A stretch of 34,096 nucleotides of DNA from a virus. The notes below the pieces were generated by a model. That model did not search any database, was not told the origin of the DNA, and saw nothing but the letters and a program-made list of their open reading frames with translations. Of the stretch, positions 1-34,096 are shown piece by piece. The position numbers and the translations under genes were made by a program. The stretch is taken from IMG/VR virus record IMGVR_UViG_3300032104_000068; one strand, given 5' to 3'. Position 1 is the first letter of the stretch, and each line of letters starts with the position of its first letter.

Positions 1-56
1 TGGGCTTGGGGCGTCCTTTGAATTTGGGCTTGGGGCGTCCTTTGAATTTGGGCTTT
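1..56. repeat. 24-bp tandem repeat (2 copies at this end), same array as 33957..34096
   Basis: The unit gggcttggggcgtcctttgaattt is repeated. Positions 1-52 are identical to 34045-34096. Confidence 0.95.
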
Positions 57-91
57 CCTTTCGGTGCCTGCTTTGCGGACGGCTTGGTCAT
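1..91 (-). CDS. terS: terminase small subunit, 5' end (gene wraps across the window junction and continues at 34096..33500)
   Basis: The ATG is at 91..89 with AAGG 9 nt upstream. It reads MTKPSAKQAPKG followed by KPKFKGRP repeats down to position 1. The frame joins the 33500..34096 ORF only when the terminal overlap (1-52 = 34045-34096) is collapsed. Confidence 0.8.
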   Translation of the reverse strand, partial: MTKPSAKQAPKGKPKFKGRPKPKFKGRPKP

Positions 92-2902: not shown

Positions 2903-3384
2903 TTCCCATCACTCCGCCAGCCGCAATCCGGGCAAATGGCAATCGCTACCTGGCCACCCGTTCCCGGCATGGACGGGCATGTCAGGCGTCCTGCACCACA
3001 TTCCGGGCACAAGGCGTCCAGCCATTCCTTCAACGTAGCGTCAGCAAGGTCCTGGTCATTGAAATACCGCCATTCTTCTTTGAGCGGGTCATAAATCGCA
3101 AAAATATTAGCGTCATATTCTTCCACCACAGCAAGCTGAAGTACTTTATCCCGTTCCGCATTATCGGTCAAAAGAAACAAATCTTCCGTGGTGTATTCCC
3201 ATTCTTCCGGGTCGTAAAAATATAGCCCGTTGGGCGGGGTGATTTCACCCGGTTCAAGTTCAGCATCAAGAATTTCCCTGATGCCATCCGCCAATTGATT
3301 TGTCGGCGGATTGTCGATGTCATCGAAGGGAAAAGTTTCCAATAAATCCCTGATTGCTTTTTCTTTTTCCGCGAATGTTTTCAT
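2899..3384 (-). CDS. strongly acidic protein with C-terminal zinc-ribbon (161 aa)
   Basis: The ATG at 3384 follows GAAAGGAAAAACATC. I count 36 D/E against about 13 K/R. The C-terminus has CPECG...CPDCG. Confidence 0.7.
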   Translation of the reverse strand: MKTFAEKEKAIRDLLETFPFDDIDNPPTNQLADGIREILDAELEPGEITPPNGLYFYDPEEWEYTTEDLFLLTDNAERDKVLQLAVVEEYDANIFAIYDPLKEEWRYFNDQDLADATLKEWLDALCPECGAGRLTCPSMPGTGGQVAIAICPDCGWRSDGK

Positions 3385-3546
3385 GATGTTTTTCCTTTCA
3401 AATAAATGGCGGCGCGTCATCCTTAGACCAGATACAATGCGCCTTTCGGCTCCCCGCCCCGGTCATGTTTAACCCCGCATCAAAAGGGCAGGATGACTTG
3501 TGTGCGGACCGCCGCCGTGGCCCGGCAGGAGATTGGCGGGGCATAT

Positions 3547-3729
3547 TCATCGGCGTTCCAACTGTCCGGCAATCACTACCAGCAATGCCGCCCACAGGGC
3601 CAACCCGACCCTGAAACCCAATGGTCCGGTCAGGTCTTCCAGCCAGAACGGGAAATAATAAAATGCAACCAGGCTGAGGCCAGCGGCAACCAAGTAAAAA
3701 ACTGAGGACAAAAATGATTTCATTTTCAT
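3547..3729 (-). CDS. small membrane protein, two predicted TM helices (60 aa)
   Basis: MKMKSFLSSVFYLVAAGLSLVAFYYFPFW...VGLALWAALLVVIAGQLERR. The start overlaps the upstream stop. Confidence 0.6.
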   Translation of the reverse strand: MKMKSFLSSVFYLVAAGLSLVAFYYFPFWLEDLTGPLGFRVGLALWAALLVVIAGQLERR

Positions 3730-4266: not shown

Positions 4267-4814
4267 GTCAATCTAATCCATTTTAAAAGCTGAGCATCAG
4301 CCGGGACACGATTATTACCACGGGCCAGCGGATGCCGTGGGGAAAGGTCATTGTTTGTCCCCAGACACCAAAGGTCATGACCGGCCAGGTTCAATTTGCG
4401 GGCCACTTCCAAGCCGCGCGGGTCATGAAATTCAGCGCCCCAGGCAATTACCACCTTGGCCACATTCCCGGCTTCCTCAAGAATAAAGCCGTCATTCAAT
4501 TCAATCAACCTGGCCCGTGACCGTTCCGAAAGATTGCTGATGTGGTCCTTCATGATGCGCGGGTCCGGGTTGATGAACGGCCAAAGGTTCATTGCTACGT
4601 GCGCGGCAAAGCCATGATGGTTCCAGATGCGTTTGCATTTTTCGGTAGTCATGTCGGTTTCCTTGACGGACCCGGCCAGGCTTGGGTTCATCATGATACA
4701 CAGCACAGCCGGACCTTCGCCCCAACGATGTTCCAGGCGGAAGCGATAGCGGCCACGGGCTGAAAATATATTTAGGCGGCGCTGGATTAAATCAGATGTT
4801 TTGACCAGTTTCAT
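4263..4814 (-). CDS. DUF1643-like protein (183 aa)
   Basis: RYRFRLEHRWGEGPAVLCIMMNPSLA ... VIAWGA ... LGTNNDLSPRHPL matches my recollection of the DUF1643 pattern. The ATGA overlap links it to the upstream gene. Confidence 0.6.
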   Translation of the reverse strand: MKLVKTSDLIQRRLNIFSARGRYRFRLEHRWGEGPAVLCIMMNPSLAGSVKETDMTTEKCKRIWNHHGFAAHVAMNLWPFINPDPRIMKDHISNLSERSRARLIELNDGFILEEAGNVAKVVIAWGAEFHDPRGLEVARKLNLAGHDLWCLGTNNDLSPRHPLARGNNRVPADAQLLKWIRLT

Positions 4815-5152
4815 TTTTCCTTACCATCACCAGTTGCCTTGATGACCGTGGGCAAAGCGACCGCTCCCTTCAATCCCTTTATCGCCAGGAAATATGCGCT
4901 GGCCGCTTCCTGAAGTTTCTTGTGCAGGGCATCAGCAATAAACATTCTTTTCATCGGGTTGATTTTAATTTGCCCGGCCTCATAGCGCCTGACCGTCCTG
5001 GCCGCTTGCATGCCTTTCAATTCAAGCACCCTGGCGAATTTGTCAGCGGAAAGTCCAAGCGCCTTGCGGCAAGCCTTGATATCATCCCCGCTCAAGTCCG
5101 GTAAAGATGAAAGGTGACCGATGATTTTTTGCAGGTCTTTTTTTTCAGACAC
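4811..5152 (-). CDS. XRE-family helix-turn-helix regulator (113 aa)
   Basis: It starts with GTG at 5152. LSGDDIKACRKALGLSADKFARVLELKGMQAARTVRRYEAGQ is a typical HTH_3-like segment. Confidence 0.65.
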   Translation of the reverse strand: MSEKKDLQKIIGHLSSLPDLSGDDIKACRKALGLSADKFARVLELKGMQAARTVRRYEAGQIKINPMKRMFIADALHKKLQEAASAYFLAIKGLKGAVALPTVIKATGDGKEK

Positions 5153-5206
5153 TTGAATATCCCATGTTTTCTTTTGACCCTAAACTGCGGGCGCTCGCGT
5201 TGTCAA

Positions 5207-5616: not shown

Positions 5617-5862
5617 TTAAAGTTCCCTTGGTCCAAGATAAAATTGATGTTCCGAAATCCGCCACTTGTCATTCTTCAATTCCAGCGTCAGGCGTCTTCC
5701 TGTTTCGGTCGGGATGCCGAAAGCATTTTCCAGCAAACGCACAAAAAGCCGTGGTACGGGTTTCAAGGAAATCTGGCCAATCACCAGAACCTTGGTTGGT
5801 GCGCCATAAATGTCGGCTTCAAAACTGTACCCGTTGACATAAATACTTGCCAATTTTCCCAT
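5617..5862 (-). CDS. hypothetical protein (81 aa; the frame also stays open upstream to ATG 6135)
   Basis: The ATG at 5862 is preceded by GGAAAGGAAAGACG. It reads MGKLASIYVNGYSFEADIYG... Confidence 0.65.
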   Translation of the reverse strand: MGKLASIYVNGYSFEADIYGAPTKVLVIGQISLKPVPRLFVRLLENAFGIPTETGRRLTLELKNDKWRISEHQFYLGPREL

Positions 5863-6144
5863 CGTCTTTCCTTTCCGGTTTTCCCCATGTTCATCTATAT
5901 TACTATTTATATTTAAAAGATTGTTGTTGTTGGTCCTGTGGACAACTGGCACAACACCCGGTGTAGCGCAAGCCGTTGCAACGCTTTCTCTTGTGTATAA
6001 CCCTGTGGATTGTTTAGCGGTGAACGGGGATGCTTTATCGAAAGGAACCATCCCGTCAGTTAATCCACGACCGGCGCACAGGTTTTTCACAAACCGAAAA
6101 AAATTTAAATCCGTCATTTCAAAGATGCTGTTCATGGTCTTTCC
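5863..6144 (-). repeat. copy B of a ~270-bp module with degenerate DnaA-box-like motifs plus an AT-rich tract (paralog of 29909..30183)
   Basis: The 13-nt tcatggtctttcc is identical at 6132-6144 and 30171-30183. A 43-nt block (5905-5947) matches 29945-29987 at 37/43, and a 37-nt block matches at 27/37. Minus-strand boxes are TTGTCCACA (5937-5945) and CAATCCACA (6004-6012). Plus-strand boxes are TTAATCCAC (6060-6068) and TTTTTCACA (6083-6091). Confidence 0.8.
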
Positions 6145-6320
6145 GCCAATCTTGCGTTCAATATCATCCAGGCCAGCGCCGCTTCTTTTATTGGACCGGC
6201 ATCTTCCCCAATCAGGGTGTGAATTGACACCCCGTCTTTTTTGGCTTGGGCCAATTTTTGTTGTGCTTCTTTGGCGCAAACATGCACCAGCCCCTGCAAC
6301 CCCACAACCATGTCACACAC
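6132..6320 (-). CDS. hypothetical protein (59-62 aa)
   Basis: The start is either GTG 6320 or ATG 6311, just after the HTH gene stop. Its stop overlaps ATG 6135 (ATGA). Confidence 0.5.
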   Translation of the reverse strand: MCDMVVGLQGLVHVCAKEAQQKLAQAKKDGVSIHTLIGEDAGPIKEAALAWMILNARLAERP

Positions 6321-6704: not shown

Positions 6705-6745
6705 AATCTGGAAATCGGTTTATTCCATATTCCAGAAACTGTCAA
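6698..6745. promoter_or_regulatory. 48-bp nested dyad in the 54-bp divergent intergenic region (candidate operator and overlapping promoters)
   Basis: TTGACA(6698-6703)-N4-CTGGAA(6708-6713)-N16-TTCCAG(6730-6735)-N4-TGTCAA(6740-6745). Each TTGACA is a perfect -35 hexamer pointing inward. The hexamers 17 nt downstream are poor -10 matches (TATTCC and TAAACC). Confidence 0.5.
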
Positions 6746-6758
6746 CCGCAAACATGGG

Positions 6759-7823
6759 ATGTTAAAAATGACTGAGCCACTTTTTGATATGGGTGTTGCG
6801 CCTGGAATTTATTTCAACCAATCCTTTGAGGATTATCTTGCGGTGCCCGCGCTATCAGCATCAGGCGTCAAAAAACTGATGGGCAACCCGCTTTTATTTT
6901 GGGCGGAAAGCTGGCTGAACATTGACCGCTCGGAACAAGAGGACCGTGAACATCAGCGCATCGGCAAGGCATATCACTGTTTGATTTTGGAAGGCCGTGA
7001 TGAATTTAACCGGCGCTTCCCGGTGAACTTCAACCCGGACGATTTCCCCGAGGCCCTGAACACCCAGGAAGATTATAAAGAGCGGTGCCGAGAATTGGAC
7101 CTTGCGGTCAGCGGCACCAAGCCGGTCCTGAAGCAACGCATCCTTGAGGCTGATGTTGAATGTCGGTTTGTTGAAGATGCCAAGGCTGAATTTTACCGGG
7201 CGAATGAAAATGCTGAAGGCTTTATGGAGCCGGATGAAATTGAAGAACTGGACTTCGCCGCCAGCCTGATTGAAATTCATGAGGATGTATCCAAATGCTT
7301 CCGGGGCGGGTTTTCAGAAGTCAGTGCCTTCTGGTATGACCCGGATGCCGGCATCCCGTTTAAGGTGCGCTTTGATTATCTCAAGCCCATGATGATTGCT
7401 GAACTGAAGACAATGGCCGCAACCGAGCGTCCTATGGAAAATGCTGTTTACACTGAAATGGCCAAACGCCGGTATCATATCCAAGGCACACTTTATTTGC
7501 GGGCCATCAATGAACTCAGGAAACTAGGGCCACTTTCAACGGACGGCACCAAAGAACAACAGGAATTTACTGATAAAATTTTTGGTGACGACCATGAAAT
7601 GAAGTTCATTTTTATCTTCCAGCAAAAGGGTCCGGCCCCGCTGGTATTGCCCCGGATTTTTCCACAGCAATCAATGTTCAACTGCGGGGAAACCAGCATT
7701 GATGCCGCCATGACCCGCTTTGATAATTATTGGCGGACTTTCAGAACCGCGCCCTGGGTCCAGCATGAGCCGATTGAATATTTTGATGATGCCATGTTCC
7801 CGCCCTGGGCAACCGAGATTTAA
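6759..7823 (+). CDS. RecE-like PD-(D/E)XK exonuclease (354 aa)
   Basis: SEVSAFWYDPDAGIPFKVRFDYLKPMMIAELKT ... YHIQGTLY fits the D...ExK plus Q..Y arrangement of exonuclease VIII-type nucleases. An annealing-protein gene lies downstream. Confidence 0.65.
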   Translation: MLKMTEPLFDMGVAPGIYFNQSFEDYLAVPALSASGVKKLMGNPLLFWAESWLNIDRSEQEDREHQRIGKAYHCLILEGRDEFNRRFPVNFNPDDFPEALNTQEDYKERCRELDLAVSGTKPVLKQRILEADVECRFVEDAKAEFYRANENAEGFMEPDEIEELDFAASLIEIHEDVSKCFRGGFSEVSAFWYDPDAGIPFKVRFDYLKPMMIAELKTMAATERPMENAVYTEMAKRRYHIQGTLYLRAINELRKLGPLSTDGTKEQQEFTDKIFGDDHEMKFIFIFQQKGPAPLVLPRIFPQQSMFNCGETSIDAAMTRFDNYWRTFRTAPWVQHEPIEYFDDAMFPPWATEI

Positions 7824-8540: not shown

Positions 8541-9380
8541 ATGAATAAGATGAACACCACACCTGAAAAAGTTGATGCCCCCGCACCGGCTGAAGCCCCC
8601 GGTACCAAGAAAGAAAACCTGAAGAAAGGAAAGCCCCAGGCCAGGTTGAAAGCCGGGGGGAAAGTTGAAGCTATTGTTCCACACACCATTGAACAGGTTT
8701 ACCGATTTGCGGATGCTGTTATAACCGCCTGCCTTGCCCCTGATAGTTTTGAGAATGACCGGAACAAAGTTGCAATGGCCATCCTGAAGGGCTTGGAAGT
8801 TGGGCTGATGCCGATGACTGCCCTGGCCAATATTTATATTGTCAAAGCACGGCCAACAATTTGGGGGGACGCGGCAATGGCCCTAGTTCATGATACCGGC
8901 GAGTTGGAATTTATGAATGACCACTATGAAGGGTCATTTGAAAAGGGGGATTTGATGTGTTCCGTCACCATGAAGCGGCGCACGGTTGACAACTCAATCA
9001 CCCGGACCTTTTCAATGGCGGACGCAACCCACGCCGGATTGATTAACCGGGACGGCACTCCCAAGGCTGGCAAGTTTGCCTGGAATTATATCAACCGGAT
9101 GCTATTCAACCGTGCCCGCGCCTGGTGCGTCCGTGACCTTTTTGCTGATGTGCTTTGCGGGCTGGCTATCAGGGAAGAACTGGAAGGCATCCCTGAAAAG
9201 AAAACCGTCAAGGACACAAAATTTCTTGGTGATGTTATCGAGGGTGAGGCTAATGAAATTCCCGCTGGCGATGCTGAGACCAAAACATCCGAAGGTGACA
9301 CCTGGGTATCACCTGAACCCGAAAAGGACCTGATTGAGGAAGTCCTTGAGGATGATGAATTGCCAGAAAAAAGAGGATGA
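8541..9380 (+). CDS. Redbeta/RecT-type single-strand annealing protein (279 aa)
   Basis: GLEVGLMPMTALANIYIV...IWGDAAMALV and NRMLFNRARAWCVRDLFADVLCGL resemble the conserved RecT/Redbeta blocks. It is paired with an exonuclease gene. The start may be ATG 8541 or 8550. Confidence 0.6.
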   Translation: MNKMNTTPEKVDAPAPAEAPGTKKENLKKGKPQARLKAGGKVEAIVPHTIEQVYRFADAVITACLAPDSFENDRNKVAMAILKGLEVGLMPMTALANIYIVKARPTIWGDAAMALVHDTGELEFMNDHYEGSFEKGDLMCSVTMKRRTVDNSITRTFSMADATHAGLINRDGTPKAGKFAWNYINRMLFNRARAWCVRDLFADVLCGLAIREELEGIPEKKTVKDTKFLGDVIEGEANEIPAGDAETKTSEGDTWVSPEPEKDLIEEVLEDDELPEKRG

Positions 9381-11032: not shown

Positions 11033-11068
11033 GAAGGGGCTGGCGGTAAAGCCAGCCCCTTCTTCTTG
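11033..11068 (+). terminator. rho-independent terminator of the plus-strand arm
   Basis: Arms gaaggggctggc (11033-11044) and gccagccccttc (11051-11062) enclose a 6-nt loop. The sequence ttcttgtg follows. Confidence 0.6.
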
Positions 11069-27347: not shown

Positions 27348-28766
27348 TTAATAGGTCACGCCGGTCATGACGCTGATGCTTTCGCTGTGCAAAGTGGCAA
27401 AATCAACGTGCAGGACCATGCGGATGACAGTTTCATTCCGGCTGAACCCGGACAGCAATGTTCCGGTGCTGTCGAGATAAGCGGCACCATCCACCACGGC
27501 AAGCGTGATTTCATCAACATTCGCAATCAACTGGTCTTCCATATCGGCCAGCAAGATTTCGGTTTCATTGGACCCGCCCCCAAGATTTGAGGGGATGTTG
27601 TTGGTGCTCCACCAGGGATGTCCTTCAAGCAACGGGGTTGACCCGCGCATTTCGGGGAAGACCCGGTTGCCGCCAGCGGCCTCACGCAAGGCACCGATGT
27701 TGCCACGCGAACGGGGCACGCCAAACCAGGCGGGTTTGACCATCCCGATGTCTTTGCCTTCCAGATTGGTAATCATGATGTTGACATCACTTTCAACATT
27801 GGCGGCAGTTGCGCCAGCCGTGGCGAATACGTTGCCAGCAAGCGCATGGTTCCGCATCCCCTTGGGCTGTGACAGCGTGCCAGAGCCGCGCAGGAACGCC
27901 ACATCTTCTGTCGTGCCCATGATGCGAAGTGCGTCATTCTGAGCCAACTGCATGGCCTTGCCAGAGGTATAGCGCAACAGTTCATTGGTGACAGGGATGA
28001 TGACCGTCAGCTTGTGCGCCACCAGTTTGATTTGACCAGTTTTTTGCTGTGACGCATTGGTGTTAGTGCCTTCCTCACCCCAAGTCGCGGTCGCACCGGC
28101 GGTCAGCTTGTCCATGCCGAAATTGCCGCGCGGAATTGTAACCATGCGCGGACCGGCACGCCGGACAACACTGGCCGGACGCAACAGGTCAATGATTTCT
28201 TCCGCCATATCTTCACGGACTGTTGACCCGCCGGCATCAAAGACAGTGGACAACAAAGATTTTTCCAGGCTGTCCTTCAGCTTTTCATCGCTGATATTTT
28301 CAATGAAATAAGATGCGCCATAGGGATTGAATTTGTGCATGACATGAACCGCCAGCAATTTGCCAAAGCGTGTTTTTGCCTGGTCTTCCTCACTTTCCTT
28401 CCCGATGTCATTGAACTTTTCAACCTCGGCCTTGGAAACACCGCCCTTGAGAACGGCAATGTTTTTGTCGGTGAAGCCTTTTTCTTTTACGGCATCATCA
28501 ACCGTGTCCTTGACGGTTTTCTTCAGGTCCGTCATGAACTTTTCGGCGTCAAAATCATCGGCCGGAGTTGTTTTGACCATTGGTTTTTTCTTGCCATCGG
28601 CTTCATCGGTCTTAGGTTTGGCCGCTGAGATTGCCTCAAGTTCGGTGATGTCCGCCTTAAGACCCTTCAGTTTTTCGGTTTGTTCATCCGTTGCCGCATC
28701 ACCAAGCTTGTCAACGTCCGCCTGTAATTTGGCAAGTACGGCTTTAAGCCTTTCCAGAATTTTCAT
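27348..28766 (-). CDS. major capsid protein, HK97 fold, with N-terminal delta-like coiled-coil region (472 aa)
   Basis: It follows the prohead protease. The N-terminus is coiled-coil for about 150 aa, followed by typical HK97-family blocks (…LRPASVVRRAG…TIP…, …AFLRGSG…QPKG…). Confidence 0.9.
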   Translation of the reverse strand: MKILERLKAVLAKLQADVDKLGDAATDEQTEKLKGLKADITELEAISAAKPKTDEADGKKKPMVKTTPADDFDAEKFMTDLKKTVKDTVDDAVKEKGFTDKNIAVLKGGVSKAEVEKFNDIGKESEEDQAKTRFGKLLAVHVMHKFNPYGASYFIENISDEKLKDSLEKSLLSTVFDAGGSTVREDMAEEIIDLLRPASVVRRAGPRMVTIPRGNFGMDKLTAGATATWGEEGTNTNASQQKTGQIKLVAHKLTVIIPVTNELLRYTSGKAMQLAQNDALRIMGTTEDVAFLRGSGTLSQPKGMRNHALAGNVFATAGATAANVESDVNIMITNLEGKDIGMVKPAWFGVPRSRGNIGALREAAGGNRVFPEMRGSTPLLEGHPWWSTNNIPSNLGGGSNETEILLADMEDQLIANVDEITLAVVDGAAYLDSTGTLLSGFSRNETVIRMVLHVDFATLHSESISVMTGVTY

Positions 28767-28798: not shown

Positions 28799-29908
28799 TT
28801 ATGCTTTCTTCATGGCGTCTTTCACAGCGTTTAAAACAACGGTTGTGATTTCCGCCTGAGTTGGCATCTGTACGCTCTTGGATTTTGCGGCACCGTGCGG
28901 CACCTTGAGATTTGCCATAGCACGGGCGACCAAATCTTGCAACTCCTCTTGCCCCTCATTGCTTTCCCTGACTTCCAGCATCACGGCGTCGAGTTGTTTT
29001 TTAAACCCCCGGACTTCAGCCATCAGGTCAGCAAGTGTCGGGGCTTTTTTCGGCTTTGTTTTTTTCTCAGGCATAGGGAAAAAAGGCAACGGTCCGCCTT
29101 CGTCAGCAATGATGCCGCGCTGTGACTTGACTACTTCCAGCACCTTGGTTTTCAATTTTTCAAGCCATTCATCCTCAAAGCTGTCCAGGTCTTTTTTCAC
29201 ATGGTCCATGACTTCACCGGCCAGTTTTTTGGTGCCAAAGGTGTAGGTGACTTCGCCTTCCAGGGTGTTTTTCCGTACCAGTTCAACCTGATGCCGGGAA
29301 ATGGGCAGGTCATTTTTCACGGTCTTCCATTCATCCAGCGTGCGCCGCGCCCATTCATTCATCGGCTTCAGGTCAATGCCCTTGGCCCGCGCCTGGATTA
29401 AGGCTTCCGGGTTCGACGGTACGTTGACCAGGGAAAATTCCAGCAGTTCCTGCTCAATGAAATCAATCCCGCCCCGGTCATTATTGTGCTCATGGCGCCT
29501 GGAAACAAATCCAACCGATGTGGTGTTCAGAAAACCGCCAGCCAGCAATTTAAACGTCATGAAGCCAAATTCATGTTCATCCTTTTCAGTGAATTTCGTG
29601 GCCAGGCTGACCAGTTTGCCGCCCTGGACCTTGACCTGCCGGGCCTGGGCGATTGCCGGGATGCGATGGTCATGCGCCCATAACACCACCGGGTTCTTTT
29701 TGAAGTGGGTCAACTCCCAACCCTTGACACTGATGGTATCGCCATCCCGGTCAACATCGCCAGTGGAAATAATGAAGTCAACGGTCCGCTTGTCCTGGTC
29801 AATGCCCCGAATATAACCGGGTTCAGCATATTGCTTGATAAGCATTGCCCCCTTGGGCGTCATGATGGTGTCGCTTTTCAGGTCGCTTGAATAAAGAAAT
29901 TTTGTCAT
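28799..29908 (-). CDS. prohead serine protease (HK97 / S78 type) with C-terminal scaffold-like region (369 aa)
   Basis: DFIISTGDVDRDGDTISVKGW...NPVVLWAHD...TSVGF...LLEFSLVNVPSNPEAL carries the S78 motifs. The C-terminal half is helical and charged. Confidence 0.85.
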   Translation of the reverse strand: MTKFLYSSDLKSDTIMTPKGAMLIKQYAEPGYIRGIDQDKRTVDFIISTGDVDRDGDTISVKGWELTHFKKNPVVLWAHDHRIPAIAQARQVKVQGGKLVSLATKFTEKDEHEFGFMTFKLLAGGFLNTTSVGFVSRRHEHNNDRGGIDFIEQELLEFSLVNVPSNPEALIQARAKGIDLKPMNEWARRTLDEWKTVKNDLPISRHQVELVRKNTLEGEVTYTFGTKKLAGEVMDHVKKDLDSFEDEWLEKLKTKVLEVVKSQRGIIADEGGPLPFFPMPEKKTKPKKAPTLADLMAEVRGFKKQLDAVMLEVRESNEGQEELQDLVARAMANLKVPHGAAKSKSVQMPTQAEITTVVLNAVKDAMKKA

Positions 29909-30183
29909 GGCCTTTCCTTTGTTATTACTCTCATCATCTTCATAATTTATATTTAAAGGGTTGATGATGTTGGTGCTGTGGATAACTAATGTCGCAGTAC
30001 GGCCAGCTACAACATTTTGCGTCCAAACTTTAAACGCACCACTATATTTAGGTGTTTCAAACCAAACACGCCAGGTTGATAACTCTGTGAATTGTTTGTG
30101 ATTAACCGGGATAATTTTTTAAAAATCAATTTATCCACAGCCAATACACAGGTTTTCCACAGGGTTATGCTCATGGTCTTTCC
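29909..30183 (-). repeat. copy A of the ~270-bp module: DnaA-box cluster plus AT-rich tract (paralog of 5863..6144)
   Basis: TTATCCACA is at 30131-30139 (+) and 29977-29985 (-). TTTTCCACA is at 30153-30161 (+). CACAG cores sit at 30136, 30147 and 30158, an 11-bp phasing. An AT-rich tract spans about 29925-29960. Only a 55-codon ORF (30007..30174) is present. Confidence 0.8.
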
Positions 30184-30200
30184 TTATCTTGATTTGCAAA

Positions 30201-30218
30201 ATGTTTCACGTGAAACAT
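30201..30218. other. 18-bp perfect palindrome atgtttcacgtgaaacat
   Basis: Read directly from the sequence. It lies 39 nt downstream of the portal-MuF stop. On the minus strand it is followed by TTTG. Confidence 0.9.
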
Positions 30219-30256
30219 CCCGCCTTTCTTTAATGTTTTCAATGTCTTATCCTTTA

Positions 30257-32278
30257 TCAGCCCTGCACAATCGCCAGCACATCAGCGTGCATGGCCCGGA
30301 AGGACCGCCTGAAGGCGCGGCGCAACTGGCGTTCAAACTGTTGCCGCCTGTTTTCAAACACCCGCCACACTTCAGCACGCTTTTCTTCTGTATCCAGACG
30401 GGCAAGATTGGCCGGGACCACAGGGACCACGCCGCACTGGCAGTTAATGTCCTCCCCGGGCACCCCGAATTGTCCCGGCCCTGGGGCGCTGGCCCCCCCG
30501 GCACTGACAAAATTGTTTTCAACCGGAATGGTCACGCCGGATAATGCAACATGCGTGTCCCGCACCGGCGACCCGCCGACCGTAATCAGCCACATTTTCT
30601 TTTTCACCCCGGCCTTGACCATCCCTTCCTGCACCCCAAAGCTGGACGCTCTGACGGTTTCGGTCCGGGCGATGGTGCCCGCCCGTGAAATGCTGGCGTC
30701 AAAGACCTGTGTGACCCGTGTTGAAAGCGCCGGAAGACTGTCCCCCGCCGCCAGTCCTTCAGCCAGGGTGCGCCGCAAACCTTCCTTGATGGTGCCGTTG
30801 ACGCCGACCACACGGGTGCTGGAATAGTCCCGCAAGAACCGCACCACAGCCGGGTCATTCAAATCAAAAACAATATCCAGGTTCAAGGACCGGAACAGGT
30901 CATCCCCGAACGCGGCCACGGTATCGGATACAATCCCGACCGTTGCCGGGCCTGGGCTGTTAGCGTCAATCGCGGCAAGAATATCATCAATGTCATCGGG
31001 TGCCTTGGTGATTTCCTTGAACGTGCCATCTATCAGCACCGGGCCATTTTTGCTTTCCCTGAAAAATAACTGTGGCGCACGCAATCCAGCAAGTTCTTCC
31101 AGCCCAGGGGTTGCCGGATTGCCTGTGATGTTCAGATTGAACGGCACCGGGAACACGTTCAGCCCCTCAAGCACTTCCTCACCGGCGGCCTTGCGGACCT
31201 CATTCAGCCTGAAGGCTTCTGGCCGTGATTTCATCAACTCAATTTTGGTCTTCATGTCTTCCTTGACCGGGCTGATGAACCCCAATTTGGCGCGTGGGTC
31301 CTGCTCGTGCAATTCACGTTCAAAGACCGCACGCATTACAATCAGTTTGGGCAGGACCACATGCTTGGATAAAAAGAACTCGGCGGCTTCGATCGTGGCC
31401 CGGTTGCTGTTCTCAAGGATGCCCAGGGCTTCGGGCGGGAAGCCATAGACCTGAAGCACCGCGTCCCGTGACATCCCCCTGATGTCCTTCATCGCCATCT
31501 TGCGGAAGTCCTTGGCAAATTCCTTCACGTCAATCTTGCCGCCAGTGACAAAGAACGGCACCGATGCCCGCGCCACGCCATGCAGTTTTTGAAGCCATTT
31601 TTTCTCAAGCCGTTCAGCCTGGTCCTTGCCAAACCCGCTTTCACTGTCCGCCGCTGAAATCAGCAAATCAGGCCGGGCGCTGTTGCGGAAAAAGTTCTTG
31701 ATATAGCGTGTGGCATAGCTATCAGTTTCAAGGTCATCCGCCAGCGCCGCGCCGCGTCCCTTGCCTGGGCCGTAGGGATTGGCCGGGTCTGGATTGACAA
31801 CCGCAATGATGTCTTCAGGCTCAAAGCTGAACATGGTGGCCCCGATACGGACCTGCCAGGTGCCCTTGCCAAGTATCGGCCGCTTCAGGATTTCGTGGGT
31901 CGGAATAGGCCAGAAGGAAATTGTGTCGCCCCGGAAATTGCGTTCCTTCAGGAAATGAAATTCATCCAAAATACAAAAATATTTCCACGCCAGCAACCAG
32001 TTTTGAAGGCCAGGAAAAACTTCATTGCCGTTATTCATGGCATTGGCAAAGGGATGGTCCTCAATTTCCTCACCATCGACTGTCACTAACCAGGGAACCG
32101 CCGCACCGATTTCAGCGGTCTTGTTGACCACGGCGTTGAGCCATTTGTATCGGTGATAACCCAGGACAAGTTGACGTTGGGTGAAAATTGTCGGGGTGGT
32201 GTTATCGCCGACTGGCGAAAAAAAGAAGTTGCCTTGCGCTTCACTCCCAAAAAGTCCGCCGAATATTTTTTTCAACAT
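30257..32278 (-). CDS. portal protein fused to a MuF / SPP1-gp7-like minor head protein domain (673 aa)
   Basis: ATG 32278 overlaps the terL TGA, and the ORF-track TTG at 32293 is an alternative start. The first ~400 aa are portal-like. The C-terminal ARTETVRASSFG...W..T.....VRDTH..L.G......F......PG....INCQC is the Phage_Mu_F signature. Confidence 0.85.
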   Translation of the reverse strand: MLKKIFGGLFGSEAQGNFFFSPVGDNTTPTIFTQRQLVLGYHRYKWLNAVVNKTAEIGAAVPWLVTVDGEEIEDHPFANAMNNGNEVFPGLQNWLLAWKYFCILDEFHFLKERNFRGDTISFWPIPTHEILKRPILGKGTWQVRIGATMFSFEPEDIIAVVNPDPANPYGPGKGRGAALADDLETDSYATRYIKNFFRNSARPDLLISAADSESGFGKDQAERLEKKWLQKLHGVARASVPFFVTGGKIDVKEFAKDFRKMAMKDIRGMSRDAVLQVYGFPPEALGILENSNRATIEAAEFFLSKHVVLPKLIVMRAVFERELHEQDPRAKLGFISPVKEDMKTKIELMKSRPEAFRLNEVRKAAGEEVLEGLNVFPVPFNLNITGNPATPGLEELAGLRAPQLFFRESKNGPVLIDGTFKEITKAPDDIDDILAAIDANSPGPATVGIVSDTVAAFGDDLFRSLNLDIVFDLNDPAVVRFLRDYSSTRVVGVNGTIKEGLRRTLAEGLAAGDSLPALSTRVTQVFDASISRAGTIARTETVRASSFGVQEGMVKAGVKKKMWLITVGGSPVRDTHVALSGVTIPVENNFVSAGGASAPGPGQFGVPGEDINCQCGVVPVVPANLARLDTEEKRAEVWRVFENRRQQFERQLRRAFRRSFRAMHADVLAIVQG

Positions 32279-33549
32279 CAGATTAAATCCCAATCGCCTT
32301 GTTTGCCACTAAGGACCAATTCAGTGATTGCCCACACCAGCGCATCCATTCTGTCCGGGCTTTTTTTCGTGACCCCAGGGACATATGAAATAAGCTGGTC
32401 TTCAAGCCCTGACAAGGTGCCGATATGGTGGACCCTGCCCAATTCATACAAGGCGGCGACTGGTTCAGCGCGGGTCATTTTCCCTTTTGTGGCATGAACG
32501 GATTTATAACTAACATTATTTTGAATGTTCCGCAAATTGGTTTCCACCAGGTCGCCCCCCTGGTTGACCTCAGCCACCACCCGGTCAGCCAGAAAAATAT
32601 TGTAGGCCCTAAGCACCTTATTGCCCCATGTCAAGGGTGAACCCTGCAAGGAACAATCCTGCAAAATGAACGCATGGCGTCCGGTGCCCTGGCCATGTGC
32701 CCCGGCCACAATGATGCCGCACTCGTCAGCATCCGGGCCGGACGTGACCGGCGGGTCAACCGCCACAACAATCCGGTCCATTTCCTTGGGCGGGTTCAGC
32801 ATCCGGGCCTTGTCAATATCCTCCCAGGTCCACAATGCACCTTCAACAATCCGCTGGAACTCACCGGCAAAGAACCGGGCGCGGGCGGCACGCGGCAGGC
32901 TTTTTAGAATTTCAATAAATTCGGGGGTCAGGTTTGCCAGATTATCAGGCGGGTTAATCTGCATTTTCCCATATAGATGCGGGTTCCTTAAGGGTTCTTT
33001 TGTCCCTGGTAAAAGGCCCTCAAAGAAAATTGAATAAATCCAGTGTTTAATTGACGGCGGATTGCAGTCAAACAGCATTTTCAAATCCAAGCCAACATTT
33101 TCCGCCAGCCTGGTCATAACAATTTCAGCCGCCATCCAGGTGATTTCGGAAACCTCGTTCAGAAAAATCGTGCTGTATTCATTGCCCAATATTTTTTCAA
33201 CCCGCTCTTTATCGTCCAGGCCCATGAACCAAATTTGCGACCCGTTGGACAGTTCGGCAAACCAGTCCGTCTTATTGACGTGATAGGGCACGCCAGGAAA
33301 GCACAGCGTCATCACTTTGGGAAAGGTATCATAAACGATTGATTGCTTGATATGGTTGAAATGATGCCGTGCCACCAGGTGCCGGGACTTGACGGCGGCG
33401 GCGCGGATTACAATGTCCCGCAAATGAAGGAAAGTTTTACCGGACCGTGACCCGCCGTAAAGCAGGATGAACATATACCTGGCAATCAAGCGGGTGGCAT
33501 CAGTCTGCTTTATAGTTTTTTGAAATCGTGGCGGCATCATCGGCATCAA
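32278..33549 (-). CDS. terL: terminase large subunit (423 aa)
   Basis: It has Walker A YGGSRSGKT, an ATPase block IFLNEVSE, and a C-terminal nuclease-like region VAVDPP...ECGIIVAG...AEVNQGGD. It lies between terS and the portal gene. Confidence 0.9.
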   Translation of the reverse strand: MMPMMPPRFQKTIKQTDATRLIARYMFILLYGGSRSGKTFLHLRDIVIRAAAVKSRHLVARHHFNHIKQSIVYDTFPKVMTLCFPGVPYHVNKTDWFAELSNGSQIWFMGLDDKERVEKILGNEYSTIFLNEVSEITWMAAEIVMTRLAENVGLDLKMLFDCNPPSIKHWIYSIFFEGLLPGTKEPLRNPHLYGKMQINPPDNLANLTPEFIEILKSLPRAARARFFAGEFQRIVEGALWTWEDIDKARMLNPPKEMDRIVVAVDPPVTSGPDADECGIIVAGAHGQGTGRHAFILQDCSLQGSPLTWGNKVLRAYNIFLADRVVAEVNQGGDLVETNLRNIQNNVSYKSVHATKGKMTRAEPVAALYELGRVHHIGTLSGLEDQLISYVPGVTKKSPDRMDALVWAITELVLSGKQGDWDLI

Positions 33550-34096
33550 TCACCATTTTGATTTCCAGTTGACCATCCAAATCAATTTTGTCGCCAAAAA
33601 TTTTGGGCAGGATTTTGGATGTCAACCATTTCCGGGCATCAATTCGCAACCTGGACCGCTGGACACGCTCTTGGTCAAACCGGATTATTGTTTTGCCGCT
33701 GGCGGTTTTAAAAATAGCATAATCCTGCCGCCCGTCATCGGCAATTTCATTAATTTCATCAGCCATCGCATGTGCCCCCAACTCGCGCGCGTGTGCGTAT
33801 CGGACGTAAAAGCCCTTTGGCCGGTCATCAATATACCATCCCCTGATTGTTGTTGCAGGTGGAAGTTTCGTGTCATCCCGGCAAATAGTTTTAAGCCCGT
33901 GACCATCAGCAAGGCGGGCCAGTATCTTCCGTGCAATCGCCGGGGTGTACTTGGTCGGGCGTCCTTTGGATTTGGGCTTGGGGCGTCCTTTGGATTTGGG
34001 CTTGGGGCGTCCTTTGGATTTGGGCTTGGGGCGTCCTTTGAATTTGGGCTTGGGGCGTCCTTTGAATTTGGGCTTGGGGCGTCCTTTGAATTTGGG
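33500..34096 (-). CDS. terS: terminase small subunit, 3' portion (5' end at 91..1 after the wrap)
   Basis: ...KSKGRPTKYTPAIARKILARLADGHGLKTICRDDTKLPPATTIRGW...YAHARELGAHAMADEI...RLRIDARKWLTSKILPKIFGDK is a classical small-terminase pattern. The frame is open to the window end. Confidence 0.85.
   Translation of the reverse strand, partial: PKFKGRPKPKFKGRPKPKFKGRPKPKSKGRPKPKSKGRPKPKSKGRPTKYTPAIARKILARLADGHGLKTICRDDTKLPPATTIRGWYIDDRPKGFYVRYAHARELGAHAMADEINEIADDGRQDYAIFKTASGKTIIRFDQERVQRSRLRIDARKWLTSKILPKIFGDKIDLDGQLEIKMVIDADDAATISKNYKAD
33957..34096. repeat. 24-bp tandem repeat, 6 copies (3 'ggattt' type then 3 'gaattt' type)
   Basis: The gggcgtcc core recurs at 33957, 33981, 34005, 34029, 34053 and 34077. 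On the minus strand it encodes KPKSKGRP and KPKFKGRP. Confidence 0.95.

Follow-up and report, generated by a model that had tools for sequence, protein, structure and literature searches.

The 34,096-nucleotide (nt) phage sequence IMGVR_UViG_3300032104_000068, the whole of which we refer to as the window, contains two diverged copies of an intergenic module: one (copy A) between the portal/MuF and prohead protease/scaffold genes and the other (copy B) in the leftward early operon. The best-supported interpretation of these sequences is a non-coding DNA cassette that is duplicated, acts in cis and carries an array of predicted protein-binding sites matching the DnaA box. We infer both what would bind them and what the output would be, whether replication, DnaA titration or transcription control.

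Two collinear copies of one module

An earlier reading of the letters alone (hereafter the sequence-only reading) had proposed that 5863-6144 and 29909-30183 are paralogs in the same orientation. They are collinear and share five conserved blocks (Table 1) that score far above shuffled controls. In local alignments, the part comprising the core and the 3' end (5851-5947 against 29897-29987) scored 67, compared with 20.3 ± 2.4 for dinucleotide shuffles (maximum 33, n = 500). The ATG-proximal half (5948-6150 against 29988-30190) scored 35, a value that none of 1,000 shuffles reached (17.5 ± 2.3) and that compares with at most 26 for other genomic segments. The similarity is clearly beyond chance in both halves.

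The details given in the sequence-only reading were largely reproduced. The identical 13-mer spanning the ribosome-binding site and ATG is present in both copies as GGAAAGACCATGA, the 37-nt block described as matching at 27/37 was recovered as an ungapped block with 27 matches in 36 positions, and the 26-nt block described as 19/26 has a best 26-nt window of 20/26 in our alignment. The 43-nt block (5905-5947 against 29945-29987) matches at 37/43, as described. The 11-bp phasing of the CAC cores at 6066, 6077 and 6088 and the quoted translations LWKTCVLAVDKL and L*KTCAPVVD*L were likewise correct, and both copies do end with the Shine-Dalgarno sequence and ATG of a downstream gene (block 5).

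Identity between the copies is strongly uneven, with blocks at 75-89% separated by unalignable stretches, and the homology ends 8 nt past the downstream ATG. The copied unit therefore has a near-identical Shine-Dalgarno sequence and ATG at both ends, the second of which is donated to the downstream gene; at its 5' end, the ATG of copy B overlaps the stop codon of the gene for a 62-amino-acid protein. A blastn-short search with both modules found no third copy in the window. Exact-pattern scans of viral, metagenome and genome collections for the core returned eight matches, all of them chance matches without flanking similarity.

DnaA-box-like sites cluster in the module

At the centre of every A/B-conserved block are 9-mers that resemble the DnaA box, with the consensus TT(A/T)TNCACA (PMC4674748). 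This consensus occurs 8 times in the window, compared with 2.0 ± 1.4 times in composition-matched shuffles (P = 0.0005). Three of the matches fall within ~180 nt of copy A, and a density of three per 300 nt was reached in 0 of 2,000 shuffles, which gives statistical support in copy A to the DnaA-type boxes pointed out from the sequence alone. Both perfect TTATCCACA 9-mers of the genome are located in copy A. When up to two mismatches are allowed, the modules take the top two places in box density among the genome's 300-nt windows.

The plus-strand boxes of copy A are in 11-bp phase and are mirrored by boxes on the minus strand, so that the arrays together form an imperfect palindrome of ~85 nt centred on TTTTTAAAAA. 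A second perfect box stands ~90 nt beyond the array; next to it come the spacer GCAC, CAACATCATCAA and the AT tract TTTAAATATAAAT, in this order. A perfect 11-nt inverted repeat joins 29975-29985 to 30131-30141. From the AT tract to the AAAGGAAAGGCC-ATG of the protease gene is a distance of 36 nt. Copy B has a degenerate array, and among the 30-mers of the genome the core of this copy ranks second in AT content.

Copy A is an insertion and copy B is diverging

The gap between the portal and protease genes is 348 nt in the window, compared with a gap of at most 12 nt or overlapping genes in all seven relatives examined. Given this tight junction and the 36.5% G+C content of the spacer (50.8% for the genome), copy A is an insertion; it lies between genes that are adjacent in relatives and deviates in composition, as moron-type insertions do. 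The closest protease homolog, at 49% identity, comes without the module, and the other relatives have neither the module nor DnaA-box clusters. When the C-terminal end of the portal protein was used to look for a copy A ortholog, the only proteins recovered had 41-44% identity. The leader specific to copy A contains a perfect 18-nt palindrome, ATGTTTCACGTGAAACAT (30201-30218), that is unique in the genome.

Copy B could be compared with an ortholog of its locus, a 783-nt contig from another sample (L015, ENA ERZ25043466) that encodes a counterpart of the 81-amino-acid protein downstream of copy B and is 95% identical to the window without indels. The segment 5934-5898, comprising the CA repeat and the AT tract, is unchanged in L015. 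Substitutions in L015 affect 8 of 110 positions in the A/B-conserved blocks and 22 of 163 in the rest of the module (p = 0.12). We propose that copy A is the intact version and copy B a degenerating second copy.

A 10-nt patch between the AT tract and the Shine-Dalgarno sequence of the 81-amino-acid gene (5888-5897, L015 431-440) differs at 8 of 10 positions and looks like a replaced or hypermutable segment. The Shine-Dalgarno region that follows it is conserved between copy B and L015.

An origin-like element as the tentative function

Along the transcribed minus strand, the module runs from a Shine-Dalgarno sequence and ATG through three 11-bp-phased 9-mers of the DnaA-box type and mirrored boxes of opposite orientation to a last box, which is TTATCCACA in A and TTGTCCACA in B. 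The order is completed by 4 nt of G+C spacer, 12 nt of CA-trinucleotide repeat, the AT tract TTTAAATATAAAT and a second Shine-Dalgarno sequence with ATG. After cooperative loading on the phased sites, a box-binding initiator would melt or mark the adjacent AT-rich tract, which would make the cassette an origin-like element for unwinding or initiator loading. Host DnaA would be the simplest candidate for this initiator, because no phage initiator gene is recognisable. Scans against Pfam and PHROGs of 39 open reading frames (ORFs), namely the early ORFs except a few small ones, the head and packaging genes and the endolysin, recognised no initiator, helicase, primase, polymerase, integrase or partition gene, and a RecE-like and a RecT-like protein are the only DNA-metabolism functions identified in the window. 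We tentatively favor an initiator- or DnaA-binding, origin-like loading or unwinding element, since the plus-strand order and orientation resemble those of Bacillus subtilis oriC, the arrays are phased and opposed, and the phage has no recognisable initiator of its own.

The closest likeness is to the basal unwinding system (BUS) of oriC, in which a box is followed by a 4-nt G+C spacer, a 12-15-nt trinucleotide tract and an AT tract (PMC8287927, PMC6669920). The unwinding module of B. subtilis oriC reads 5'-TAGTAGAAGTAATAGTAG GGCC TGTGGATTTGTGGATAAGT, that is, 5'-(TAG...)6 GGCC TGTGGATTTGTGGATAA (PMC8287927 supplement). The plus strand of the phage module follows the same order of AT tract, trinucleotide repeat, 4-nt G+C spacer and TGTGGATAA, and the orientation of the box agrees. 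Each copy has a box within two mismatches of TTATCCACA (TTATCCACA itself in A, TTGTCCACA in B), an AT-rich region beyond the triplets (TTTAAATATAAAT in both) and, as in the BUS, additional distal boxes. Unlike the BUS, the module is found in a phage, in two copies and inside operons rather than beside dnaA/dnaN, and its canonical-strand triplets are TTG/ATG (GTT/GAT) instead of NAN.

The module also has the appearance of an iteron-type origin, with three sites at 11-bp spacing (30131/30143/30153 and 6061/6073/6083) next to AT-rich DNA; a cognate initiator gene was not found among the 39 scanned ORFs, and a small one of a novel type may be present. Paired origin-type elements exist in phage P4 as ori and crr, for which the P4 alpha protein is the initiator. 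In phage SPP1, one origin copy lies within early coding sequence and the other elsewhere, a placement that copies B and A resemble in that one is embedded in the early region and the other is not. The SPP1 initiator G38P binds two origins, oriL and oriR (PMC5615212). Like SPP1 oriL/oriR and P4 ori/crr, the two copies are diverged repeat arrays with AT-rich DNA, kilobases apart in a small phage genome. Those systems have a phage-encoded initiator and repeat motifs of their own, whereas here no initiator is recognisable and the repeats match the host-type DnaA box. The cultured phage with the closest large terminase, Synechococcus phage Ssp-JY42 (PP438432.1), has a 138-amino-acid DnaA C-terminal (box-binding, domain IV) protein annotated at 3193-3609. 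No homolog of such a phage-encoded DnaA-domain-IV protein is detectable in the window.

The datA, DARS1 and DARS2 sites of Escherichia coli and the DnaA-box clusters of B. subtilis titrate or remodel DnaA or control an adjacent promoter; we know of no phage-borne DnaA-box cluster of the datA/DARS kind. Such clusters are short, non-coding groups of three to five boxes and are present in more than one diverged copy per genome. In these respects the module resembles such non-origin clusters and DnaA-regulated promoters (reviewed in PMC8203912). It differs from the datA/DARS clusters in that those are chromosomal and in that its own boxes are putative. We consider it conceivable but improbable that this tailed phage, in which no initiator, helicase or primase is recognisable, carries host-type oriC-like modules for DnaA loading and unwinding, one of them inserted in its head-gene operon, and either hijacks host DnaA to start its own replication or uses the box clusters in a datA-/DARS-like manner to retune the host DnaA cycle during infection. 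If the boxes do load the host DnaA, the module would be a compact case of a phage that borrows the chromosomal initiation code in place of an initiator of its own, and it would be copyable within the genome by bringing its own ribosome-binding site and start codon.

Several observations weigh against an origin-like function. The DnaA-trio rule asks for at least three consecutive NAN triplets no further than 16 nt from the box, on the strand that carries it as TGTGGATAA (PMC8287927). That strand reads TTG ATG ATG TTG in A and (TTG)4 in B; in any phase, A has two NAN triplets (TAG TAG read 3' to 5') and B has none. The boxes of copy B were not protected after its split from L015 when changes are polarised with copy A as the outgroup. 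The third plus-strand box, TTTTCCACA, is kept in L015 and became TTTTTCACA in the lineage of the window, while the core box TTGTCCACA of copy B became TTGTCTACA in L015. Taken as a whole, copy B changes about as fast as third codon positions in the neighboring genes. Box totals are not enriched genome-wide, either at one mismatch or fewer from TTATCCACA (10 compared with 7.1 expected) or at two or fewer (88 compared with 87), so that the evidence lies in clustering rather than overall abundance, and a window with seven two-mismatch boxes was seen in at least 1 of 200 shuffles. The boxes were scored against the literature consensus, from which the DnaA-box preference of the host may differ. In the viral, metagenome and genome collections we found no module homolog, which leaves a single lineage for comparison. 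Finally, both copies lie inside transcription units, in sense orientation and immediately upstream of a start codon, a position that an origin does not need and an expression element does.

An expression cassette as the closest rival

The last point is the core of the strongest alternative, which we regard as possible, if on the unlikely side: the module would be an internal, activator-dependent middle or late promoter together with a 5' leader and the region of translation start. DnaA or a phage early protein would act as the activator, bound at the box near -42 and at the boxes upstream of it, and the CA repeat and AT tract would serve as the promoter core or as a translational enhancer that is unstructured and AU/CA-rich. 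Expression of the protease/scaffold gene or the 81-amino-acid gene would be driven by the Shine-Dalgarno sequence, the ATG and an AAA codon downstream. Both copies are in sense and end exactly at a start codon 36-42 nt past the AT tract, a position that fits a promoter or translation start at least as naturally as an origin. The leftward gene array of ~30 kb requires internal control points, and expression would have to step up at the junction of the portal and scaffold/capsid genes. The comparison with L015, in which the core is retained in copy B despite the decay of its boxes, leans toward an expression element for that copy: the unchanged island 5934-5898 would span about -36 to +1, with the variable patch and the conserved Shine-Dalgarno region next.

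Other features fit an expression cassette poorly. In neither core was a sense-strand sigma-70-type promoter found (-35/-10 elements spaced by 16-18 nt, which may not be the type used by the host), and the best reading, CCAACA-N16-TATAAA, has 8 of 12 positions in agreement and ends without the conserved T. At 275 nt, the module is long for a promoter, and the 5' Shine-Dalgarno sequence with its ATG and the mirrored three-plus-three array are left unexplained. A DnaA-controlled internal promoter would satisfy both the expression and the origin-like readings.

Repeated control elements and cargo insertions are familiar in phages, among them the morons of HK97 and lambda, the RNase III sites of T7, and the C-dependent and Ogr-dependent late promoters of Mu and P2. 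The module shares with these its low G+C content, its insertion between genes that abut in relatives, and its repeated, sense placement just upstream of genes. Unlike them, it appears to have no conserved cargo ORF (the 55-amino-acid ORF of copy A is without a homolog, and its frame is broken in B), no promoter/terminator pair was recognised, a hairpin is kept in one copy only, and its motifs resemble DnaA boxes. Readings as an integration host factor site and as a Bacteroidetes promoter were inspected by eye and dropped.

No constraint on an encoded protein

Copy A contains a 55-codon ORF, and copy B forms the upstream part of a 172-codon ORF, raising the alternative that the module descends, as a relic, from a duplicated gene for a small protein or from moron cargo. 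The gene would be either the 55-amino-acid ORF or an ancestor of ~90 amino acids in the frame open in B, and one or both copies would by now be decaying pseudogenes without any cis function. We consider this unlikely, even though a strong Shine-Dalgarno sequence and ATG stand at the 5' end of both copies, morons typically combine low G+C content with insertion at a gene junction, and copy B evolves near the neutral rate. The frame in phase with the downstream ATG is moreover open for 91 codons in B and 70 in A. The three indels between blocks 2 to 5 measure 12, 42 and 6 nt, and that all three are multiples of three has a chance of about 1 in 27, which we take as weak evidence for coding ancestry.

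The sequence-only reading had stated that no single frame is conserved across the module. This needs qualification: no frame is open in both copies, but given the indel lengths, the open frame of B maps to one single frame of A throughout blocks 2-5, that of the protease ATG at 29908. In A, this frame has two stops and no start codon, and every frame shared by the two copies contains stops. Mismatches in the A/B blocks are distributed over the codon positions as 5/8/6, 8/5/5 and 5/5/8 in the three frames, with 3-4 synonymous and 10-13 non-synonymous codon changes, so that no frame has a third-position or synonymous excess. The stop codon of the 55-codon ORF comes before the best conserved block (86%), and uniform decay of a gene does not predict blocks of 75-89% identity amid unalignable stretches.

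Database searches agree with this pattern. A word-indexed search with the 172-amino-acid ORF found no homolog other than the 81-amino-acid C-terminal gene, and an exhaustive HMMER search of 1.84 billion representative proteins gave as its sole match an 81-amino-acid protein 93% identical to residues 92-172. The sequence-only reading had named a conserved protein spanning the 172-codon ORF as the finding that would undo a nucleotide-level interpretation, and only the 81-amino-acid C-terminal part proves to have a homolog. The 172-, 55- and 81-amino-acid products have no match in Pfam or PHROGs. Lacking a homolog among these proteins and families, and with its frame closed in copy B, the 55-codon ORF is probably not the conserved entity. 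Codon-usage scoring of the small ORFs was uninformative.

L015 provides a further contrast. It carries an in-frame TAG at codon 10 of the long ORF, and it differs from the copy B module by 30 substitutions in 273 nt (11.0%), at codon positions 11/7/12, with no synonymous bias. The three flanking genes are 6.5-7.8% divergent, with changes at codon positions 6/0/6, 8/1/8 and 2/0/4 (together 16/1/18); the second-position contrast between module and genes is significant (Fisher p = 0.02). Taken together, the codon-position pattern, the HMMER result and the stop and divergence in L015 indicate that a protein reading of the module fails. Judged from these comparisons, the real gene at the copy B locus is the 81-amino-acid product from the ATG at 5862, and the 273 nt upstream of it are non-coding, or at least unconstrained as protein. 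This bears on annotation: the 172-codon ORF has a strong ribosome-binding site and is called as a gene in one public assembly, and a single 783-nt ortholog fragment shows it to be non-coding upstream of an internal start.

A canonical -1 slippery heptamer, T_TTA_AAG, occurs at 30028-30034 (minus strand), in frame with the 55-codon ORF and 18 nt ahead of the stop of this ORF. Slippage by -1 at this point would take ribosomes into the protease/scaffold frame, whose open stretch upstream of the ATG extends over 70 codons. A frameshift fusion of the 55-amino-acid ORF to the protease is unlikely, because the heptamer is absent from copy B and no stimulatory structure is well placed.

A stable predicted hairpin in copy A only

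Copy A can form a hairpin at 30076-30166 with a predicted energy of -27.4 kcal/mol, compared with -14.1 ± 3.2 for shuffles (z = -4.2). This value, the sense orientation of both copies and two adjacent compensatory pairs, the only ones in the alignment fold of A and B, might suggest an RNA element in a polycistronic transcript. In A, the hairpin would serve either for RNase III-type processing or stabilisation or as a nut/put-like antitermination signal, and B would hold a weaker counterpart. We find such a role quite improbable. Copy B and L015 fold no better than shuffles in the hairpin region (z = +0.5 and -0.3), and the fold of the whole module has z = -2.4 in A and +1.5 in B. Rfam gave no match at gathering or relaxed thresholds except RF03993, a microRNA-family hairpin (E = 0.08, far below threshold). 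With a stable hairpin in A only and no Rfam match, a shared structured RNA is not supported; in addition, the 11-nt direct periodicity within each arm is unnecessary for a hairpin, and the core, the best conserved block, is predicted to be unpaired. A hairpin that serves processing in copy A alone is conceivable. The sequence-only proposal that selection acts on DNA or RNA features rather than on a protein thus holds in part: the module is not protein-coding, but selection on copy B is weak and the copies share no RNA fold.

Least probable of all, and very much so, is a non-autonomous mobile element resembling a miniature inverted-repeat transposable element, with inverted TGTGGATAA / TTATCCACA repeats as its ends and gene starts as its targets. 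The insertion of copy A, its perfect 11-nt inverted repeat with TG...CA termini and the near-identical Shine-Dalgarno and ATG direct repeats flanking each copy recall such an element or an insertion sequence; however, the inverted repeat lies inside the homology unit, which runs well beyond it on both sides, the direct repeats are the same in both copies and thus part of the unit rather than target duplications, there is no transposase, and there are only two copies in the genome and none in the collections.

Genomic context and other features of the phage

The window is a phage genome of ~34 kb from a metagenome (ENA ERZ650194 NODE_149), complete or near-complete, and other assemblies of the phage are identical to it in sequence. 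Nearly all genes are on the minus strand in a single leftward array of ~30 kb. Early small genes run downward from ~6704 and include those for helix-turn-helix proteins and a DUF1643 protein. After them, the array continues with an HNH gene and the genes for the large terminase, portal/MuF, protease/scaffold, capsid, tail and an M15 endolysin, and the RecE-like and RecT-like proteins are encoded in a short rightward operon (Table 1). The large terminase is 49.5% identical to that of Synechococcus phages; the endolysin reaches ~40% identity with Pelagibacter phage endolysins, and the capsid protein ~36% with capsids of proteobacterial phages. A search for related phages with the RecE-like exonuclease returned no matches.

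Table 1. Coordinates in the window of the two module copies, their predicted sites and the surrounding genes
Feature	Coordinates	Strand	Details
Copy A	29909-30183	minus	between portal/MuF and prohead protease/scaffold genes
Copy B	5863-6144	minus	between 62-aa (amino acid) gene and 81-aa gene, leftward early operon
Block 1 (B / A)	6144-6129 / 30183-30168		15/16; contains identical 13-mer GGAAAGACCATGA
Block 2 (B / A)	6091-6056 / 30161-30126		27/36
Block 3 (B / A)	6015-5997 / 30097-30079		17/19
Block 4, 43-nt core (B / A)	5947-5905 / 29987-29945		37/43
Block 5 (B / A)	5874-5852 / 29920-29898		19/23
A-specific leader	30184-30256	minus	after portal stop codon; no counterpart in B
5' Shine-Dalgarno and ATG, copy A	30171-30183	minus	identical 13-mer; start of 55-codon ORF
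5' Shine-Dalgarno and ATG, copy B	6132-6144	minus	GGAAAGACCATGA; conserved in L015
A box array	30074-30161	both
A plus-strand boxes, 11-bp phase	30131-30139; 30143-30151; 30153-30161	plus	TTATCCACA; AATACACAG; TTTTCCACA
A mirrored minus-strand boxes	30106-30114; 30097-30105; 30086-30094; 30074-30082	minus	TTATCCCGG; TTAATCACA; CAATTCACA; TTATCAACC
B box array, degenerate	5992-6091	both
B plus-strand boxes	6061-6069; 6073-6081; 6083-6091	plus	TAATCCACG; GGCGCACAG; TTTTTCACA
B minus-strand boxes	6004-6012; 5992-6000	minus	CAATCCACA; TTATACACA
A core	29945-29987	minus	AGTTATCCACAG CAC CAACATCATCAA CCC TTTAAATATAAAT
A core parts	29977-29985; 29961-29972; 29945-29957		perfect DnaA box TTATCCACA; repeat; AT tract
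B core	5905-5947	minus	AGTTGTCCACAG GAC (CAA)4 TC TTTAAATATAAAT
B core parts	5937-5945; 5921-5932; 5905-5917		box TTGTCCACA; perfect (CAA)4 repeat; AT tract
A 3' end	29898-29920	minus	AAAGGAAAGGCC ATG ACAAAATT; Shine-Dalgarno and start of prohead protease/scaffold gene
B 3' end	5852-5874	minus	AAAGGAAAGACG ATG GGAAAATT; Shine-Dalgarno and start of 81-aa gene
55-codon ORF in copy A	30007-30174	minus	start ATG 30174
172-codon ORF	5617-6135	minus	only last 81 codons (5617-5862) behave as gene
81-aa gene	5617-5862	minus	start ATG 5862; called as gene
62-aa gene	6132-6320		early-left operon
RecE-like exonuclease	6759-7823	plus	adjoins copy B
RecT-like annealing protein	8541-9380		rightward operon
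HK97-type capsid protein gene	27348-28766	minus
Prohead protease/scaffold gene	28799-29908	minus	start ATG at 29908
Portal+MuF fusion gene	30257-32293	minus
Large terminase	32278-33549	minus

Other repeated sequences were found outside the module. Both ends of the window (9-76 and 33933-34096) carry a 24-nt tandem repeat, GGGCGTCCTTTGGATTTGGGCTTG. Because it is common to both, the contig overlaps itself, closing the assembly, which indicates a genome that would be circular or terminally redundant. The repeat, its unit a multiple of three, probably lies in a gene upstream of the terminase. Between the ORFs at 761-1225 and 100-579, just upstream of the packaging genes, a 47-nt repeat occurs three times at a spacing of 88-89 nt (542-765), each time with the dyad AAAACTGTC-N-TTTTCTGACA; these repeats could be putative terminase-binding (cos or pac) sites, or iterons.

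A 26-nt element, GTCAAnnGnAAACATGGGATnTTnAA, is found at 5153-5178 and 6741-6766 in copies 81% identical. It stands directly upstream of the starts of a helix-turn-helix gene (4811-5152, minus strand) and the RecE-like gene, in the same orientation relative to the gene in both cases, and the two genes may have it in common as an operator or a site of translational control. A strong G+C-rich 12-bp hairpin with T runs (11033-11062), located where the rightward recombination operon meets the end of the leftward late operon, is probably a bidirectional terminator.

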